A stretch of DNA of 33,421 bases. It comes from a virus. Taxonomy: Duplodnaviria; Caudoviricetes. The DNA lies in the IMG/VR virus record IMGVR_UViG_3300005662_000121, positions 1-33,421 of that record; one strand, given 5' to 3'. Position numbers and translations under genes: made by a program. Below are positions 1-33,329 of the stretch, piece by piece. Numbering within the stretch: position 1 is the first letter of the stretch; the number at the start of each line of letters is the position of its first letter. The notes under the pieces are model-generated. The model was given only the letters and a program-made list of their open reading frames with translations, was not told where the DNA came from and ran no database searches.

Positions 1-10
1 ATAATATATA

Positions 11-50
11 ATTATATAAGTTACTTATATAATATACTTACTTATATAAT
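11..50. repeat. AT-rich direct and inverted repeats
   Basis: TTACTTATATAAT at 21-33 and 38-50; ATTATATAAGT (11-21) is the reverse complement of ACTTATATAAT (23-33). Confidence 0.6.
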
Positions 51-123
51 GTATATGAATAACCCTAAATTAATAAATTAACACTATTTTAACAAAGTAC
101 TTTTAATTATTTTTAATCTTTTT

Positions 124-131
124 TAACTTTG
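124..131 (+). promoter_or_regulatory. Bacteroidota-type -7 promoter box for the pre-early genes
   Basis: TAACTTTG matches TAnnTTTG, upstream of the first ORF. Confidence 0.5.
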
Positions 132-191
132 TATTGAATAGTTACCTATCTTTATTAAGTCAATATTGACATACAAAACAAACTTTATTTT

Positions 192-311
192 ATGTACTAT
201 TTCAGCGAAACAATTTTGCCCCTGTTATTTATTGGCTTAGTTACCTATTTTGTAGGTACTTTATGCCGTTTATTTATTCACCTTTTAATATCTGAACATG
301 CAAACAATTAG
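192..311 (+). CDS. Small membrane protein (39 aa), not in ORF track
   Basis: MYYFSETILPLLFIGLVTYFVGTLCRLFIHLLISEHANN; one hydrophobic span; A-rich leader. Confidence 0.6.
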   Translation: MYYFSETILPLLFIGLVTYFVGTLCRLFIHLLISEHANN

Positions 312-399
312 CCTTTTCGAATTGATTGCCCTATTTATAGGATCAATTCTAATTTATTCCCTTATCAAAACAATTCACCAAACAAATAAAAATAAATAA
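298..399 (+). CDS. Small membrane protein (33 aa), not in ORF track
   Basis: MQTISLFELIALFIGSILIYSLIKTIHQTNKNK; overlaps the previous ORF and abuts the next; TM span plus basic tail. Confidence 0.6.
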   Translation: MQTISLFELIALFIGSILIYSLIKTIHQTNKNK

Positions 400-400
400 C

Positions 401-667
401 ATGACTATTGAAATTTCCACTACTTACGGGTTTTGCCATAATTGGACGTTAAAAGCATACGGCAAAAGTTTCTACTTAGGGCAAGACGTTAAATTTTGTG
501 AACGTATTTTAGGCTGCAATACCTCGTATATTGTTAGTCAAATTGGTTCCAATGATCTAAGTAAAGAAGCTACAAAAAAGAAACTAGCAAAGTTTATAGT
601 TAATAGCCTTAATTTAAACAGATCAAACATTAAAAATATCGATCCATGGCAATTAGCCGCCGAATAA
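401..667 (+). CDS. Hypothetical pre-early protein
   Basis: 88 aa ORF in a tightly packed operon. Confidence 0.75.
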   Translation: MTIEISTTYGFCHNWTLKAYGKSFYLGQDVKFCERILGCNTSYIVSQIGSNDLSKEATKKKLAKFIVNSLNLNRSNIKNIDPWQLAAE

Positions 668-693
668 TTAAATAACCTTTTAATATTAAAAAC

Positions 694-924
694 ATGACAA
701 ACAAACAAAACCCAATAATAGGAACCGAAAAAGGAACCTTTTACCTAATTGAATTGGCCTCAGAATTGGCCGAAAAATTTATAGAACTAAAATATAAATA
801 TAGCATGATAAATATTTATAATTCGGACGAATTCGAACAATTTTCGTATACAGATGAAATACAGGACGAATTTAATTTTATCTATGATGAAATTGAAGCA
901 TACCTACAAAATAACAAATTATAA
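694..924 (+). CDS. Small acidic pre-early protein (DNA-mimic candidate)
   Basis: C-terminal half rich in D/E and aromatics (SDEFEQFSYTDEIQDEFNFIYDEIE). Confidence 0.7.
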   Translation: MTNKQNPIIGTEKGTFYLIELASELAEKFIELKYKYSMINIYNSDEFEQFSYTDEIQDEFNFIYDEIEAYLQNNKL

Positions 925-945
925 ACAAAACAAAACCTTTATTTT

Positions 946-1686
946 ATGTCAACCTTAACACTACAAAAACCAATTTCAAACAGTTATAAGCCTGTAAAAA
1001 ACTTACTTTCTGAGGGATCAACAAATATAAAAACAGCTAAAAATAGCTTAAAAACATATATTTTATACTTAGCCCCGTCTAATATTGTGGACGGTTTGAA
1101 CCTTTGCCCGTTCGCTTCTGAGGGTTGCAAAAAAGCCTGTTTATATTCGGCGGGACGTGGTAAATTTTCCAATGTTCAATTAGCTAGGATCAACAAAACA
1201 AAGTTTTGGGGCTTCAATCGTTCGGCCTTTTATATTCAATTGGCCAATGAATTAATGAGCATTTTGGACAAAACTATAAAAACAGGGGAACAAATAGCCA
1301 TAAGATTGAACGGGACGTCCGACATTGATCATATTGACCTATTAAACAGGTATACAGGTATTAATTTCCTCGATCCCTTTTATAGTTCCCTTTTATTTTA
1401 TGACTATACAAAAAATTATAATCATATTAGGAAATATGCGGGAACCAATTACAAAATAACTTTTTCGAGGTCTGAGGTTAACGAATTAGATGCATACAGG
1501 ACGTTAAAAGACGGGGGGAACGTTGCTATAGTTTTTAAGGATCAATTGCCCGAATATTGGAACGGGTTCCCTGTTATAAACGGGGATGAAACAGACCTAC
1601 GCTATTTTGATCCTGTTAACGTGGTAATTGGGTTAAAAGCTAAAGGGGACGCTAAAAAAGACAAAACAGGTTTTGTAGTTAGTTAG
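946..1686 (+). CDS. Gp88-family phage protein (Cys-cluster, radical-SAM-like)
   Basis: CPFASEGCKKACLYSAGRG, RLNGTSD, FYDYTK, GDETDLR and GLKAKG motifs recalled for the phage Gp88 family. Confidence 0.75.
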   Translation: MSTLTLQKPISNSYKPVKNLLSEGSTNIKTAKNSLKTYILYLAPSNIVDGLNLCPFASEGCKKACLYSAGRGKFSNVQLARINKTKFWGFNRSAFYIQLANELMSILDKTIKTGEQIAIRLNGTSDIDHIDLLNRYTGINFLDPFYSSLLFYDYTKNYNHIRKYAGTNYKITFSRSEVNELDAYRTLKDGGNVAIVFKDQLPEYWNGFPVINGDETDLRYFDPVNVVIGLKAKGDAKKDKTGFVVS

Positions 1687-1699
1687 TTGATATAATAGC

Positions 1700-1730
1700 G
1701 GGGAACTGTAAAAGGTTCCCCCTTTTTTTT
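1700..1730 (+). terminator. Intrinsic terminator
   Basis: GGGGAAC-tgtaaaag-GTTCCCC followed by T8. Confidence 0.8.
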
Positions 1731-1775
1731 GTTTGGCCTGTTAGGAGGCTTTTAGTGTTCGATCCACTCAAACAA
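1729..1775 (+). ncRNA. Minimal tRNA-like element (acceptor stem plus T-arm)
   Basis: TTGTTTG/CAAACAA 7-bp stem enclosing a GCCT..AGGC hairpin and an AGTG-TTCGATC-CACT T-arm. Confidence 0.45.
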
Positions 1776-1796
1776 ACAAACCAAAATAAACATAAA

Positions 1797-1985
1797 ATGA
1801 ACGTATACCAATTATTGGCTATTATTAAGCAATTGGAGGCGGAACAAAATCCCGCCAATAGTTATTTGCTACAGTTTTATAATGATCTGTATCAATGTGA
1901 ACTTATAATGATAGCGGAAAAAGTTACAAAACAATTAGATAGGGAACCAATTACAAAACATTGGTTTGAATACTTAGCAAAATAA
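1797..1985 (+). CDS. Hypothetical protein
   Basis: ATG 1797 after an A-rich leader preferred over the track's GTG 1755, which lies in the RNA hairpin. Confidence 0.65.
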   Translation: MNVYQLLAIIKQLEAEQNPANSYLLQFYNDLYQCELIMIAEKVTKQLDREPITKHWFEYLAK

Positions 1986-1990
1986 CAAAC

Positions 1991-2080
1991 ATGATCCAAA
2001 CAACAAAAAAGGAGCTCCCTAAATTGATCCTGATAATTGATAAAATTATAAGCCAATTAGAGGCCGAAAATAAGCCTTAA
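1991..2080 (+). CDS. Small hypothetical peptide (29 aa)
   Basis: MIQTTKKELPKLILIIDKIISQLEAENKP; shares II.QLEAE..P with the upstream ORF. Confidence 0.4.
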   Translation: MIQTTKKELPKLILIIDKIISQLEAENKP

Positions 2081-2202
2081 AATTTTATTTAATACAAAGG
2101 TATTAACTTAAAAAGATAGGGCAAATTTGAGGCTTAAAATAGCTTTAAATAGTATTTTTATACTGTTATAAGCTTAGGATATTGTAATATATCAATGTTA
2201 TC

Positions 2203-2420
2203 ACATTAATGTTTAAACATTAGTTGTTTATGCAACTAATAGACAATTTCCGCATATGGCCAAAAATCCAGCAAAAAACCCCGCAAAAATCCATGGCAAC
2301 AGTCCGCTTACGCTAACAAAAACCTGCTAAAAATCCCATGCGGACAAAAATCTGCTCGGATCACGCAAAAATCTTTTGTGAAAACTTTAACATAAAAATC
2401 TGAAATAATAACAAAAACTC
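2203..2420. repeat. Palindrome cluster plus A-tract repeat array
   Basis: ACATTAATGT, ATGTTTAAACAT, ATTAGTTG..CAACTAAT; A-tract units resembling YAAAAAYC with tracts starting at 2262, 2273, 2285, 2318, 2329, 2346, 2367, 2394, 2413. Confidence 0.75.
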
Positions 2421-2454
2421 CTTAATTTTACCAAACAAAACAAAAAACCCATCT

Positions 2455-2670
2455 ATGAATTTCGAATTAATCACCGCCAAGTATGATTGCAGATGCAGTC
2501 TAACTGGCAAAAACTTCAGTCGTGGTGACCAAGTGTACTACAACTACGAAGCAAAAACCTTTCTTGATCCTGTGTATTACGAGAACATTATGAGCCAACA
2601 AAAATCTCGTGGGGCACAAAGCTATTTTGAACGACACAAAAAACTTAACAAGATTTATCCTAACACTTAA
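2455..2670 (+). CDS. Hypothetical protein (degenerate zinc-ribbon-like)
   Basis: TAKYDCRCSLTGKNFSRGDQVYY resembles small phage AKY..C..CG..I..G proteins. Confidence 0.65.
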   Translation: MNFELITAKYDCRCSLTGKNFSRGDQVYYNYEAKTFLDPVYYENIMSQQKSRGAQSYFERHKKLNKIYPNT

Positions 2671-4659: not shown

Positions 4660-5121
4660 ATGAGTAATTTACTACCATCTATTGAATTAAATTCAATTAC
4701 ACCATCCAAATTTAGCATAGAATTACTTAAGCAAGTAGTTGTATCACATTTTAGAGAAACAGGCGAGAACCCCCTTGAGATGCTCGTTAAAGCAGAAGCA
4801 TTAGTTCAGTTGTTAGAAGGAATCAGGGCTGAATTAAAAGAAGATGTTATTAGTCAGTTAGACTTACATCCTCAAGGTAAGGCAATAGTGCTTGATGCTG
4901 AGATTAGTAGAATAGAATCAGGAGTTAAGTATGCCTATGATGGTGACCATACATGGCTTAAGTATAACCAAGAGCTTGAGGCTATTAAGTTTAAGCAAAA
5001 GGAAAGAGAGTCTTTACTTAAGACTATTAAAGAACCATTGGTTGATCCTGAAACTGGCGAGATGATTTATCCTGCTCCTAAGTTTAGTACTACCACATTT
5101 AAAATATCATTAAAGAAGTAA
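4660..5121 (+). CDS. Hypothetical phage protein (coiled-coil, recombination module)
   Basis: 153 aa helical ORF with VDPETGE near the C-terminus. Confidence 0.75.
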   Translation: MSNLLPSIELNSITPSKFSIELLKQVVVSHFRETGENPLEMLVKAEALVQLLEGIRAELKEDVISQLDLHPQGKAIVLDAEISRIESGVKYAYDGDHTWLKYNQELEAIKFKQKERESLLKTIKEPLVDPETGEMIYPAPKFSTTTFKISLKK

Positions 5122-5122
5122 T

Positions 5123-5236
5123 ATGAAAGTATTAGCAATCATTAAGTTTTTCTTTATAGCAGTACCAATAGCGGTGCTGCTATTCATATTCTGTGAAACT
5201 TATTTTAAAATCAAAGCAATAAAACGACTATTTTAA
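5123..5236 (+). CDS. Small membrane protein (37 aa), not in ORF track
   Basis: MKVLAIIKFFFIAVPIAVLLFIFCETYFKIKAIKRLF; fills the gap exactly, with TAATG coupling to the next gene. Confidence 0.7.
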   Translation: MKVLAIIKFFFIAVPIAVLLFIFCETYFKIKAIKRLF

Positions 5237-5451
5237 TGGCACAAGAAATTAAAGGATTAGAGAACTCAATACCAATTAGAATGGTTTATACTGATACTAT
5301 GGAAGAGGTGCTATTTAAGTCGGCTGCAGCAGCTAGTCGTAAGACAAAGATAGCATCTCAAGTAATCCGTGAATCGCTTAACCCTGTTGCTCGTAAGAGA
5401 TTTATTGTGGATAACAGAAAAGTGGTTTTTAGGATTGCTAAAGAAGTTTAG
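5236..5451 (+). CDS. Stand-alone NUMOD1-like HTH protein
   Basis: EEVLFKSAAAASRKTKIASQVIRESL resembles the F.S..EAA...I pattern also present in this window's HNH and GIY-YIG tails. Confidence 0.55.
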   Translation: MAQEIKGLENSIPIRMVYTDTMEEVLFKSAAAASRKTKIASQVIRESLNPVARKRFIVDNRKVVFRIAKEV

Positions 5452-8068: not shown

Positions 8069-8277
8069 AAACAGTATTGCAACAATTAATGGATTTAATG
8101 AGTGAACAACCATTTACTTTTGGAAATGCCATAAATTTAGTTATTCTTAATGAATTAATTGAAAAAGAAAAAGAGCAGATTATAGATGCTTATTGTAGCG
8201 GATATCAACATGGAAGCACACTTGAAATAATACAATCAGAAGAATACTATAACGAAACTTATAATCAAAACAAATAA
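8065..8277 (+). CDS. Hypothetical protein (MKT..Q / EKEQI family), paralog of 14534-14734
   Basis: MKTVLQQL..EKEQIIDAY..EEYYNETYN. Confidence 0.75.
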   Translation: MKTVLQQLMDLMSEQPFTFGNAINLVILNELIEKEKEQIIDAYCSGYQHGSTLEIIQSEEYYNETYNQNK

Positions 8278-8973: not shown

Positions 8974-9336
8974 ATGGCCTACATATCTGCAAGTGATTTA
9001 ACAAAGATGATGATGGATTATCTAAAAGATAATGGGTGTGAAGTATGGAGGAATAATAACCTAGCAGTTAGAGGTAGAGCATTTATAGGTAAGAAAGGAG
9101 TTCCCGATATCATTGGTTATAGTAAGAAGTATGGTCACTTTGTTTGTTGCGAAATTAAGGCAATTGCTGATAGATTATCTACAGACCAAATGCTATTTCT
9201 AGACGAAGTTGGGAATGCTGGTGGTACTGCTATGATTTGCCAACAGTTAAGAGATGAAAGCATAAGAGTTCAATTTTATAAAGACGGAGAAATAAATGAC
9301 TTTTATTATGAAAATAAACAATTAGTAAAGAGATGA
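8974..9336 (+). CDS. VRR-NUC-like nuclease / Holliday junction resolvase
   Basis: GVPDIIG..EIK..LSTDQ..FL motif. Confidence 0.85.
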   Translation: MAYISASDLTKMMMDYLKDNGCEVWRNNNLAVRGRAFIGKKGVPDIIGYSKKYGHFVCCEIKAIADRLSTDQMLFLDEVGNAGGTAMICQQLRDESIRVQFYKDGEINDFYYENKQLVKR

Positions 9337-9833
9337 GAACAATAGTAGGATTTGAAAATTATTCGGTTACTAAGGATGGTAAAGTTTTTAGTAATTTTAG
9401 TAATAAGTTTATAAAGCCATTTTTAAGAGAAAGTTCTTATGAATATTTGTATGTGAATCTTTATAATAATGGCAAGAAATCAAAACATAGCATTCATAGA
9501 CTGGTTGCTAATGCCTATATAGCTAATCCATATAATAAACCACAAGTAAATCATATTAATGGTAAAAAACTTGATAATAGACTTGAAAATTTAGAATGGG
9601 CTACCGCTAGCGAAAATGGACTTCACGCATATAAAAACGGGTTAAGCAAGGTATCTGATTATCATAAAAAGTGTATGATAGAAAGGCAAAATAAAATTGT
9701 TTTAGATACTAGCAATGGTGTTTTTTATGAATCAGCAAAAGAGGCAGCAAAATATTATAACATAAAAGCAACAACATTAATGGGATATATGAGAGGGGAA
9801 AGAAAAAATAAAACAAGTTTAATTTACGCATAA
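9333..9833 (+). CDS. HNH homing endonuclease (NUMOD4-HNH-NUMOD1 type)
   Basis: YSVTKDGKV, IHRLVA, VNHINGKKLDNRLENLEW, YESAKEAA. Confidence 0.92.
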   Translation: MRTIVGFENYSVTKDGKVFSNFSNKFIKPFLRESSYEYLYVNLYNNGKKSKHSIHRLVANAYIANPYNKPQVNHINGKKLDNRLENLEWATASENGLHAYKNGLSKVSDYHKKCMIERQNKIVLDTSNGVFYESAKEAAKYYNIKATTLMGYMRGERKNKTSLIYA

Positions 9834-9958
9834 TGGCAAAAGCGAAGACTGGGAGTTCAACAAAGGTGAGCTTCGGCTCAAGGAAACGAGGTAGAGCAAA
9901 GAAATCATTTAATAAACATAGCCCTAGGCCAAAGGCTTACATAGGTCAAGGTCGTTAA
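9833..9958 (+). CDS. Small highly basic peptide ending in Y-x-G-Q-G-R (41 aa), not in ORF track
   Basis: MAKAKTGSSTKVSFGSRKRGRAKKSFNKHSPRPKAYIGQGR; TAATG coupling to the HNH gene. Confidence 0.8.
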   Translation: MAKAKTGSSTKVSFGSRKRGRAKKSFNKHSPRPKAYIGQGR

Positions 9959-9961
9959 AAT

Positions 9962-10050
9962 AGTTAGGTGGTAGACAATTTAGGAAAGTACGCTTAGACA
10001 CATCAATAGATACTAAGAAAATGTAGGTTCGAATCCTACCCTAACTGCAA
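9962..10050 (+). tRNA. tRNA-like RNA / pseudo-tRNA with 15-nt anticodon loop (no assignable anticodon)
   Basis: AGTTAGG/CCTAACT acceptor stem, GTAGG-TTCGAAT-CCTAC T-arm, CTTAG/CTAAG anticodon stem. Confidence 0.7.
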
Positions 10051-27208: not shown

Positions 27209-27919
27209 CTAAAATTTAGTGTACTTCCATTTGAAGCCTCCTGATGATGGAATCTTACCTAAAGCAGCAGAGCTTATGTTTTTTATACCTAAACATCTTT
27301 GAGCTTCAGACACATTTCTATATTCATCTATAAACATACCATTCATAGTATATTGGTAAACCACCCTTGATTTTCCGCTATTAAGACTTTGCTTGATTTT
27401 AGTAGCTTCTGATGCTTTAGGCCTAAACTTACCTTTTTGATTTTGTGGTAGTTTAGCTATATGTTCAGCAGTAAACTTTTTGCCCTTGTTTGATTCTGAT
27501 ATTCTTTTCTTAGTTTCTTCGCTATGTTTTTTACCCATAGCAGAATTTCTTAATTTGTCAATCCACGCTTGGTCGAATATTCTTCCCTTTCTAGCTTCAG
27601 ACATTTTAGCCTTTGATTCATCACTTATAAAACCACTTTTGCCTTTGGCTTCAGTAAGTCTACAGTTAAGCCCATTCTCTCCAATAACATTATAAAAGTC
27701 TTGCCAATACCTTTCTCTTTCGTTAAGGTTTTCTGCTAAACACTCTTCAATAAATTCAATAGTATGTGCATCATAACCATACTTTTGCAATGAATTGTAA
27801 ATCCTTACTTGGTATGGCTTTGCACCATTCTTGTAATAATTTTTTCTTTTAGTAAAATTGGTTGTTTGACCAATGTAAATCTTGCCACTTAGACTTGTGA
27901 TTTTATATATTCCTATCAT
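27209..27919 (-). CDS. GIY-YIG homing endonuclease with NUMOD3/NUMOD1 domains
   Basis: GIYKIT..IYIGQT; repeated SEETKKRIS-type units; VSEAQR..I..GGFKWKY; ATG 27919 preferred. Confidence 0.92.
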   Translation of the reverse strand: MIGIYKITSLSGKIYIGQTTNFTKRKNYYKNGAKPYQVRIYNSLQKYGYDAHTIEFIEECLAENLNERERYWQDFYNVIGENGLNCRLTEAKGKSGFISDESKAKMSEARKGRIFDQAWIDKLRNSAMGKKHSEETKKRISESNKGKKFTAEHIAKLPQNQKGKFRPKASEATKIKQSLNSGKSRVVYQYTMNGMFIDEYRNVSEAQRCLGIKNISSAALGKIPSSGGFKWKYTKF

Positions 27920-27951
27920 AAAAAAAGGGAGTAGCTTTTGAACTACTCCCC
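27920..27951 (-). terminator. Intrinsic terminator after the capsid gene
   Basis: Minus strand GGGAGTAGT-tcaaaa-GCTACTCCC-T7. Confidence 0.8.
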
Positions 27952-27980
27952 TCAAAGATAGGATAATTATGTTATATTAC

Positions 27981-32192: not shown

Positions 32193-33329
32193 CTAAACCA
32201 CCCATCCTCTCTTTGCTTTCGCATATTTTGAGTAGATAGCATAACGCATGGCATCCATCAAGTGGTCACGAAACTTAACAGGCTCATCCATTGTGTTGCC
32301 ATCATGATCCGTTTTCCACTTGTAGTTTTTAATCTCATCTAACAAATCTAAAGATTCTGATTTTATAAACAATGGAAATGATTTAACCTTGTTAATTCCT
32401 GCGAACACATCTTTGGTAGCTGACTTTAAATTAAACCCTGCTTTATTTACCTCGGCTATTGTTTTGGGTTCGGCAGCATCTGCGAATATCTCATCCCTAC
32501 GAGATAGCCCCATAGACTTTAAGCGGTCTATTAGGAGTGAGGTTGACATCTTAGTATCATATATCAGTTGCTCGACATAAATGTCACCATCAAAGTTTTT
32601 GCATCTAACAAGTGCCGTTTGGTTGTTATAACCAAAGTCAAGTCCGTAAAAAACATCTCCACCTTCAGGAAAGTTCCTTCTTCTTCTCCAATGGCTATAA
32701 ATCGTAGCTTCACTAATTGCTCTTTCCCCTAATCCATAAACTCTCCAGTATTCGTGGTCAGCATCCTTCAATCTTTCAATTTCCGCAATAATGGTTTTAT
32801 CTAGAAATGGATTATCCTTATAGGTTGTTATGGTAAAGTCGGTATCTTCCCTAGGAATGACTTTATCGTAAATCCAAGAGTAATAATCGGAAGGATTATA
32901 GTCAAGTACGATTTTATCCGTAGTTCTTAGGGCTAACTGCATCCAAGATTCGTAGTTAACCTCATTTGCCTCGTTAATAAACAGATAGTGCCTTTTACGA
33001 CCTCTAATCTTCTGCGGTTGGTCGGTAGATACAAATTCTACCGTATTGCCATTAAGGAAGTATAAGTTCTCTGATTTGTTGTGTTTATCCTCTGAATAAA
33101 GCTTATACTTAGATAGTATCTCAATAAAATCTCTCATAACCGATCCCTTGATACTTGGTAGGGATGAACGGCAAATTGTTAGGGTTTTACCTCTTTCTTG
33201 CAAAAGCTTAACTATAAACCAGGTAAGCACATTGTAAGTCTTTCCTGACCTCGTACCTCCTTGCATAACAGAGATTCTCTTCTTTGAGTTGTTTAGTACC
33301 TCAAAGACAACATTGGTGGTTACTTCCAT
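32193..33329 (-). CDS. terL: Terminase large subunit (PBSX-like)
   Basis: GGTRSGKT Walker A, LFINEANE Walker B, YGLDFG and DHLMDAMRY nuclease motifs. Confidence 0.96.
   Translation of the reverse strand: MEVTTNVVFEVLNNSKKRISVMQGGTRSGKTYNVLTWFIVKLLQERGKTLTICRSSLPSIKGSVMRDFIEILSKYKLYSEDKHNKSENLYFLNGNTVEFVSTDQPQKIRGRKRHYLFINEANEVNYESWMQLALRTTDKIVLDYNPSDYYSWIYDKVIPREDTDFTITTYKDNPFLDKTIIAEIERLKDADHEYWRVYGLGERAISEATIYSHWRRRRNFPEGGDVFYGLDFGYNNQTALVRCKNFDGDIYVEQLIYDTKMSTSLLIDRLKSMGLSRRDEIFADAAEPKTIAEVNKAGFNLKSATKDVFAGINKVKSFPLFIKSESLDLLDEIKNYKWKTDHDGNTMDEPVKFRDHLMDAMRYAIYSKYAKAKRGWVV

Follow-up and report, generated by a model that had tools for sequence, protein, structure and literature searches.

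The window analyzed here (IMG/VR record IMGVR_UViG_3300005662_000121; 33,421 nt) is a single contig holding 33.4 kb of the ~35.5-kb genome of a siphophage, and its first ~2.5 kb carry a swappable gene cassette that is purged both of a bipartite, Type I-like site geometry and of short contiguous words. The purged zone has two boundaries, a conserved, cos-like DNA element upstream of the terminase operon and an array of phased A-tracts, and the segment bears the signature of the first-step DNA of phage T5. We propose that the cassette probably enters the host cell first, with entry pausing at the array. Locus L001, which joins both window ends at 99–100% identity, closes the remaining 2.1-kb gap; the gap holds the small terminase gene and a 64-aa open reading frame (ORF), so that the odd segment sits immediately upstream of the terminase operon, with its transcription running in the direction away from that operon.

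Two purges in a swappable cassette

A first-pass annotation had set positions 1–2580 apart by their word composition. Comparing word counts in this segment with those in the rest of the window, we found GAGA/TCTC to be absent (0 vs 169), AGAG to occur once (1 vs 206), CAAG to be scarce (4 vs 297, with one of the four before position 2450), and CCAG to appear first at position 2268, as that annotation had claimed. The words that it had listed as enriched, namely GATC (16 vs 27), ACGT (9 vs 0), GGCC (7 vs 28), AATT (53 vs 240), and GGWWCC (7 vs 0), were borne out by the counts, and further skewed words were GCAC (0 vs 125), CCCG (13 vs 6), and GACG (12 vs 10). Overall, the 4-mer distortion of the segment (G = 910) compares with a median of 198 for 2-kb windows. 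The bias persisted when amino acids and codon usage were held fixed: the four cassette genes contained 1 CAAG vs 7.7 expected, 0 CCAG vs 5.4, and 0 ACTC vs 5.3. Under codon shuffling, the backbone proved to lack other words, with 0 ACGT vs 58 expected, 0 GCGC vs 24, 0 CCGG vs 19, 10 GACG vs 60, and 28 GATC vs 72. Much of the palindrome excess in the segment is depletion in the backbone, and since cassette and backbone each lack words of their own, two regimes coexist on one molecule.

Relatives were compared across 67 non-redundant loci: 166 of 285 loci contained the left-hand element, 110 had at least 2.5 kb downstream of it, and 68 representatives sharing <30% of their 14-mers were retained, from which L183, without the element's right block, was dropped. 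From several of the word analyses, 23 ORF families judged spurious by eye were excluded. The bias recurred in these relatives whatever the cargo. Relatives found through DnaB, a search independent of the segment, had a 97–99% identical o5 (the first backbone gene) and other cargo in the slot (11 loci). Among the 67 relatives, one backbone clade alone holds at least eight alternative cargoes, nearly all of unknown function; they include two GP88 subfamilies, a 297-aa unknown protein, an amidoligase, and an acidic protein with a peptidase.

One purge concerns A…T pairs 8, 9, and 10 bp apart, which occurred at observed/expected ratios (O/E) of 0.87, 0.84, and 0.90 in the 67 cassettes and of ~1.0 in both flanks. 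In a G/C-containing context, the cassette values were 0.66, 0.65, and 0.69, with an overall cassette index of 0.66 across relatives. Compared with synonymous shuffles, the index was lower in 64 of 67 cassettes, whereas the backbone sets were lower in 10 of 34 and 21 of 38 cases, and the effect was also visible in amino-acid order and in non-coding DNA. It was strongest with CAC, AAC, GAC, CAG, CAA, and GAA halves, which combine freely. In the window, the cassette index was 0.65 vs 0.99 ± 0.08 in 114 overlapping backbone windows, and 1 of 500 4-mer-preserving shuffles was as low. In Type I sites, the two adenines that become methylated are spaced in this same 8–10-bp A…T geometry. For example, the methylated adenines of the Mme2I site AGAG-N6-GTG lie 9 bp apart (PMC12455610), the EcoR124II site GAA-N7-RTCG also has a 9-bp spacing (PMC10644984), and five bipartite N6-methyladenine motif pairs are reported from a Lake Biwa Chitinophagaceae genome (PMC6329791). 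Helix periodicity was rejected as the source of the 8–10-bp effect. The mirror T…A pairs were depleted as well (0.64, 0.62, and 0.79), and a simulation penalizing only A…T pairs gives 0.72, 0.69, and 0.69; the depletion of TTT-N5/6-AAA (0.33–0.35) is stronger than in a Type I-only simulation (~0.7).

Short asymmetric words, among them GAGA, GAAG, GATG, and CAAG, were purged from most cassettes, and CGCAG occurred at 0.09 vs 0.39 per kb. Across cassettes, this contiguous-word depletion was uncorrelated with the bipartite effect (rho about 0), which argues for a second, separate purge and led us to reject the contiguous words as mere Type I half-sites. The purge of Type III/IIG/BREX-like words suggested by the first-pass annotation (BREX, bacteriophage exclusion) is thus present as a depletion that does not distinguish the enzyme class, and the excess of AG-ending words that it had expected is modest (15 of the top 60 six-mers vs 169 of 1292).

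The purge is kept up by ongoing selection. Among close kin, synonymous variants that create zone-purged words fell short of expectation in the cassette alone (31 vs 51.5, P = 4e-4), and those that create backbone-forbidden words did so in the backbone alone (36 vs 84, P = 7e-10), with the crossed tests giving null results (184 vs 198 and 9 vs 10.5). Synonymous divergence of GP88 is like that of the backbone, and both hypermutation and a frozen cassette were rejected because synonymous divergence equals the backbone's.

Individual 4-bp words were either missing from a zone or freely present in it. Specifically, GCGC had an O/E of <0.25 in 45 of 66 zones and of >1 in 20, the corresponding numbers for GGCC were 30 and 32, and CCGG was below 0.25 in 61. 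This tolerance mostly stops at the array (for ACGT, 54/60, then 14/55, then 9/93). A forced trade-off behind the tolerated words was rejected, as most of their sites in cassette genes could be removed by a synonymous change at no cost (8 of 9 ACGT, 9 of 10 GATC, 8 of 11 CCCG, 5 of 12 GACG, and 6 of 6 GGWWCC sites). Modeling indicates that the purge can, as a side effect, raise the O/E of other words above 1. The tolerance in cassettes of 4-bp words absent from the backbone is only partly explained; the simplest reading, and the weakest part of our model, would be that zone alleles are tied to host lineages and that the backbone recombines across hosts.

Boundaries of the purged zone

The left-hand element consists of ATCAGAAT..GGGCACAAGG, ~17–18 variable bases, and then ACG(A/C)AAAAA..GGTAGGGGGT, and it is conserved upstream of the terminase operon in the 166 loci mentioned above (L001 position ~8146–8212). 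Its spacer has a fixed length and a variable sequence that is partly dyad in several alleles, presumably resembling a cos nicking site. When the 68 representatives were anchored on the element, asymmetric-word O/E dropped from 1.0–1.3 before it to 0.5 within one 250-nt bin after it. In our reading, the element would be the end of the packaged genome, the last part to be packaged and the first to be ejected. The distance from the element to o5 in 57 relatives ranged from 2100 to 4956 nt and was never <2.1 kb. Termini and depth were judged from assembled contigs and unitigs (24/24 runs), and contigs that cross the element allow cos, repeat, and headful phages alike. One unitig of run X3 would end only a few bases from the element, barring indels, and was not counted as evidence; the X1 and X2 unitigs cross it.

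On the right, the array is a candidate injection-stop signal with helical phasing, as judged by its unit spacing (Table 1). It was present in 67 of 67 relatives (with at least 5 units in 65), as CAAAAA(T/C)(C/T)(T/C) units that mostly stand 11 nt apart, on one strand, 1.8–3.6 kb from the element, and always preceding a translation start; no cluster of >3 units was found in the rest of the window or in 14 other phage loci. Upstream of the array, word O/E was 0.49–0.76 and the bipartite index 0.57–0.75, and in the first 300 nt after it the values were 1.05 and 1.09. A right boundary at a fixed distance was dropped because near- and far-array loci differ: 18 near-array loci recover at +2.0–2.4 kb, and 22 far-array loci are still purged at +2.0–2.8 kb. 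Where extra variable genes stand between the array and o5 (11 loci), those genes are unpurged (1.06 and 0.97). Changepoints correlated with the array position (rho = 0.59, n = 50): 35 of the 50 lay ≤300 nt from it, compared with 17 for a fixed position, and they followed the array in 12 of the 13 loci where o5 is far away. The array holds few scored words, which slightly favors a changepoint match, but the upstream bins and the bipartite index are independent of that. That the sharp edge shifts together with a cis element suggests that the DNA beyond it is held back, since enzymes would reach all intracellular DNA.

Both limits of the segment given in the first-pass annotation had to be moved. 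The right boundary lies not at 2580 but at ~2260–2450 (changepoint 2346), with three CAAG copies within 2451–2580, and the left edge lies ~275 bp before window position 1, as seen in L001. That annotation had noted neither the exchange of cassettes nor the array at the boundary, nor the purge of Type I-like spacings.

Cassette genes and genomic context

Table 1. Features of the window, with coordinates in the window unless stated otherwise
Feature	Position	Strand	Basis and remarks
Purged zone, putative first-step DNA	1..2450	.	Actual start at the cos-like element, ~275 bp upstream of window position 1
o1, 88-aa ORF	401..667	+	Phage-type homologs only, 55 found
o2, 76-aa acidic ORF	694..924	+	Net charge −9, two predicted helices
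GP88 family protein (PF17338)	946..1686	+	Profile match; invariant C54/C61/C65
Bidirectional intrinsic-terminator-like hairpin after GP88	1700..1721 (L001 10143–10164)	.	Hairpin prediction
o4, 62-aa ORF ending ...EYLAK	1797..1985	+	Last 18 bp (1968–1985) are a DNA element common to unrelated cassettes
Array, 8 units AAAAA(T/C)C(C/T)	2262..2401	+	Modal spacing 11 nt; right edge of the purge
o5, first backbone gene	2455..2670	+	97–99% identical across different cassettes; unitigs branch at 2430–2500
Large terminase, PBSX family (TIGR01547)	32193..33329	−	Profile match; followed by the small terminase and 64-aa ORF in the gap

The GP88 protein matches its profile at 123 bits (cut-off 24.4) and has a predicted fold with a predicted local distance difference test score of 85.5. 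Its invariant cysteines form CX6CX3C in place of the CX3CX2C of the radical S-adenosylmethionine (SAM) superfamily, which includes variant cysteine spacings. In a structure comparison against 48,161 chains, the top 14 were radical SAM enzymes; a Foldseek search returned nothing at E ≤0.001, and no sequence match to a solved structure was found. The modeled fold makes GP88 a candidate radical-SAM-like protein and predicted SAM binder. Because SAM destruction in T3 reportedly blocks both Type I and BREX systems, GP88 is the leading anti-restriction candidate, and it may possibly be the effector of this allele, although we regard that assignment as doubtful. The second effector candidate is o2, by its charge a candidate DNA mimic; it had no fold match, and its structure model is of low confidence. 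For o1, no Pfam, PHROG, NCBIfam, or Atlas match was found.

In cultured phages, GP88 homologs fall within the leading 2.2 kb of HMO-2011 and of several pelagiphage records, ~2 kb from the right end in cluster A mycobacteriophages, and at ~4.6 kb, in two copies per record, in Streptomyces phages; members of the 297-aa family lie inside annotated terminal repeats of Caulobacter phages. In the high-GC GP88 phages L045, L056, L058, L064, and L071, word distortion peaks around GP88 and the bipartite effect is weak, with a CGCG/GCGC excess in two of them. Elsewhere, the cassette ORFs L090 5266–5490 and L096 3693–3977 match the TreK (a Staphylococcus phage terminal-repeat protein) and Kyanoviridae gp96 families. 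A gene pair shared by L158 (2318–4877) and L101 (2725–5266) is 45–58% identical and is CG-rich in L101 and L135 and almost CG-free and unpurged in L158.

The DNA element encoding EYLAK ends the last cassette ORF in 29 of 67 relatives (strict pattern), ~200–400 bp before the array, and is possibly a recombination or regulatory site. It was rejected as a Bacteroidota −7 promoter, there being no promoter excess (52 matches vs 51 expected). Directly past the array, outside the purged zone, relatives often carry a gene for a short C5 DNA methyltransferase (PF00145) that the window does not have; it stands between the array and o5 in L013, L017, L021, L038, L132 (e.g., 4826–5440), L136, and others.

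Profile searches of the window ORFs revealed HK97-type head genes, DnaB, and a PBSX-family terminase, with no match to an integrase. A search of Rfam gave no match. The best cultured matches of the capsid and terminase (35–38% identity, and 35–36% for the large terminase) are phages of Cellulophaga, Flavobacterium, and Bacteroides, so the host likely belongs to the Bacteroidota; the best-matching sequencing runs are freshwater metagenomes. A genome scan for the host yielded a single 9-kb contig in a Bdellovibrio bin, and this contig is likely misbinned. HNH and GIY-YIG homing-endonuclease-like genes at window positions 9333–9833 and 27209–27955 are both apparently missing from several relatives.

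Proposed mechanism, alternatives, and comparison with known systems

In the mechanism that we propose, the element end would be packaged last and ejected first, and entry would pause at the array until cassette proteins have disarmed restriction. Only the DNA ahead of the array would then meet active Type I, III, and IIG enzymes, and for this reason only the leading DNA would have to lack their sites. A cargo protein would block the enzymes, most likely GP88 by acting on SAM, or the acidic ORF as a DNA mimic. Each cassette allele would be tied to one host lineage and keep the 4-bp Type II-like words that are uncut there, and the freely recombining backbone would avoid the words of all hosts. 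More tentatively, these phages might represent a widespread group of small freshwater siphophages with two-step injection, a minimal stop of phased A-tracts, and a host-specific counter-defence cassette, in which GP88 would be a new radical-SAM-type anti-restriction enzyme; we hold this broader picture to be possible rather than probable. The first-pass idea of a first-entering, defence-evading segment has thus stood as regards the position next to the terminase genes, the cos-like start, ongoing selection, and the T5-like signature, and has fallen as regards a GATC mark.

Several observations weigh against this account. Among the 80 contigs listed, no contig has its end at the element. Depth ratios over the zone (0.71, 0.88, 1.35, and ~1.1; four runs, from unitigs) are uninformative and confounded by strain mixing. 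The large terminase falls in the PBSX family, and PBSX-family terminases are usually headful. For headful phages, early-region avoidance has been argued to be irrelevant (PMC12455610). Blanket protection of the T5 kind would not predict the strong palindrome avoidance of the backbone. Counts of twelve published bipartite motifs, which may not be the host's, were only modestly low in the zones (246 vs 320, with several motifs undepleted) and stood at 620 vs 558 past the array. An index of ≥0.85 was reached by 7 of 67 zones, and in 15 of 50 loci the changepoint does not coincide with the array; the relatives share ancestry, so that per-locus counts are not fully independent. No cargo matches a known anti-defence family, GP88 aligns with radical SAM chains only at Z 4.8–6.2 (root-mean-square deviation 4.3–8.2), and the host assignment draws on the best capsid and terminase matches. 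Among the control phages, T7, HMO-2011, and LittleGuy have no clear end signal, T5 has 2-kb windows of 0.68–0.70 outside its first-step DNA, and phi10:1 has a low index over most of its examined 50 kb; these mixed controls mean that the index is neither universal nor noise-free in single windows.

It is unlikely, in our judgment, that the zone corresponds to a T5-like long direct terminal repeat, with the array serving as a terminase loading site instead of or besides a pause; its leading copy would still enter first and be purged. Such a repeat would suit the sharp, sequence-defined boundaries, the canonical packaging direction (from the array through the cassette to terS), the identity of T5's first-step DNA with its repeat, the binding of small terminase to phased A-tracts at SPP1 pacL, and the one run with 1.35x depth over the zone. 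The other three runs, subject to the same strain mixing, do not point that way, the fixed-length, variable, partly dyad spacer looks more like a cohesive end, and a repeat alone would leave the DNA past the array without a shield unless entry paused. In a T7-like, transcription-staged entry, host polymerase would pull the cassette in, the array would regulate the next promoter, and later DNA would enter only once a cassette product switched that promoter on. All cassette genes point inward, the array precedes a translation start, and a terminator follows GP88, which speaks for this reading, but T7 has no such sharp purge and Bacteroidota promoters are not in excess (see above), so we consider staging of this kind quite improbable.

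Explanations that dispense with first entry fare worse. A recently acquired island keeping its donor's signature could explain why cassettes are exchanged among near-identical backbones, why each has its own tolerated words, and why L158 seems unpurged. However, cargoes with no relation to one another have been purged alike, and the purge remains where synonymous divergence is saturated, shapes current variants, and ends at the array though variable genes continue (word O/E 0.58, then 1.06, in the 11 loci), and no donor with a genome-wide signature was found; as a source of the purge, the island is already largely refuted and very improbable, and it may explain part of the palindrome tolerance. 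We give as little weight to a local mutation process or DNA-shape selection acting without restriction (TC deamination, 5-methylcytosine decay, or A-tract phasing). It would fit such a process that 21 of 21 cassettes are short of GA/TC, with TCT and TCA hit hardest, that a C-to-T change leads from purged words to several of the tolerated ones, and that TTT-N5/6-AAA is lower than in the Type I-only simulation. Yet third-position GC content is unchanged, codon shifts go in both directions, the cassette has diverged synonymously to the same degree as the backbone, an 8–10-bp pair effect with mix-and-match halves cannot arise by point mutation, and simulation reproduces most of the T…A mirror. Finally, the first-pass annotation had taken GATC for a methylated self or packaging mark, and positive selection for GATC and other palindromes would explain why GATC reaches 2–3 times expectation in some GP88 cassettes. 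These words are nevertheless absent from many of the 66 zones (GATC from 20, at an O/E of <0.25 vs >1 in 25 zones; ACGT from 22; GCGC from 45), and penalty-only codon models (over-fitted, with 52–71 penalized words) reproduce the excesses as a by-product, which leaves such a mark hardly credible.

We therefore return to first entry of a purged cassette and to the systems that it resembles. Avoidance in leading regions is already known: in Murciavirus and T7-like phages, Type I motifs are reported to be harmful only in the leading, highly variable region (PMC12455610). That work concerns one motif in one host, whereas here the purge is a motif-free aggregate in a siphophage family with a sequence-defined right edge. 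At the whole-genome level, Rusinov 2018 describes no avoidance of Type I or IIG sites (PMC6286503); like the phages in that survey, the backbone here avoids orthodox Type II-like words, but the avoidance described here is strong and limited to ~7% of the genome. As with T3 SAMase and T7 Ocr, the candidate effectors lie in leading DNA, GP88 being a predicted SAM binder and o2 small and acidic, although neither sequence nor fold matches. At the left ends of two T7-like pelagiphages, the index is 0.47 and 0.62 in HTVC309P and 0.49 and 0.54 in HTVC120P. In Flavobacterium phage 11b, it dips to 0.65 and 0.55 within 1–4 kb, in a region of small ORFs upstream of terS, possibly a similar leading zone in a cultured phage. 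In the literature searched, we found no case of a small siphophage in which a movable A-tract array bounds a motif-free Type I signature, nor was a small siphophage with a T5-like stop signal named there.

The closest parallel is T5, in which restriction sites are reported to matter only in the first-step DNA (10.1101/866236; PMC10644984). The bipartite index of T5 is 0.59–0.81 over the annotated first-step DNA (0–10 kb) and 1.09 and 1.07 past the stop signal, and both systems have an end segment with small genes and a repeat-rich non-coding boundary at which the same index recovers. They differ in that the phage here is a 35-kb HK97-type siphophage with a zone of 1.8–3.6 kb, wholly swappable cargo, and a backbone that still avoids 4-bp words, and in that the T5 stop consists of inverted repeats with DnaA boxes, compared with a simple direct array of phased A5 tracts. 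The T5 stop region (9750–9980) also contains direct repeats GTGC(A/G)AATCCGAC superficially like the CAAAAATCC array units, probably by chance. No Pfam or PHROG match to dmp, A1, or A2 was found among the window ORFs and 53 cassette representatives. By analogy, the segment would work like T5 first-step DNA but outside that system, with no A1/A2, another boundary, and another phage class. If the broader picture given above is true, the missing words of a cassette would read out the restriction repertoire of its host, and the 8–10-bp A…T index, which reads Type I avoidance without knowledge of any motif, would find first-entering DNA in uncultured phages from sequence alone, locating leading ends and shortlisting anti-defence genes. 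The index already outlines the T5 first-step DNA correctly. The mechanism of the T5 injection stop is described as still unsolved (10.1101/866236), and a stop mechanism would become testable with a direct-repeat array of ~150 bp that exists in dozens of natural variants.

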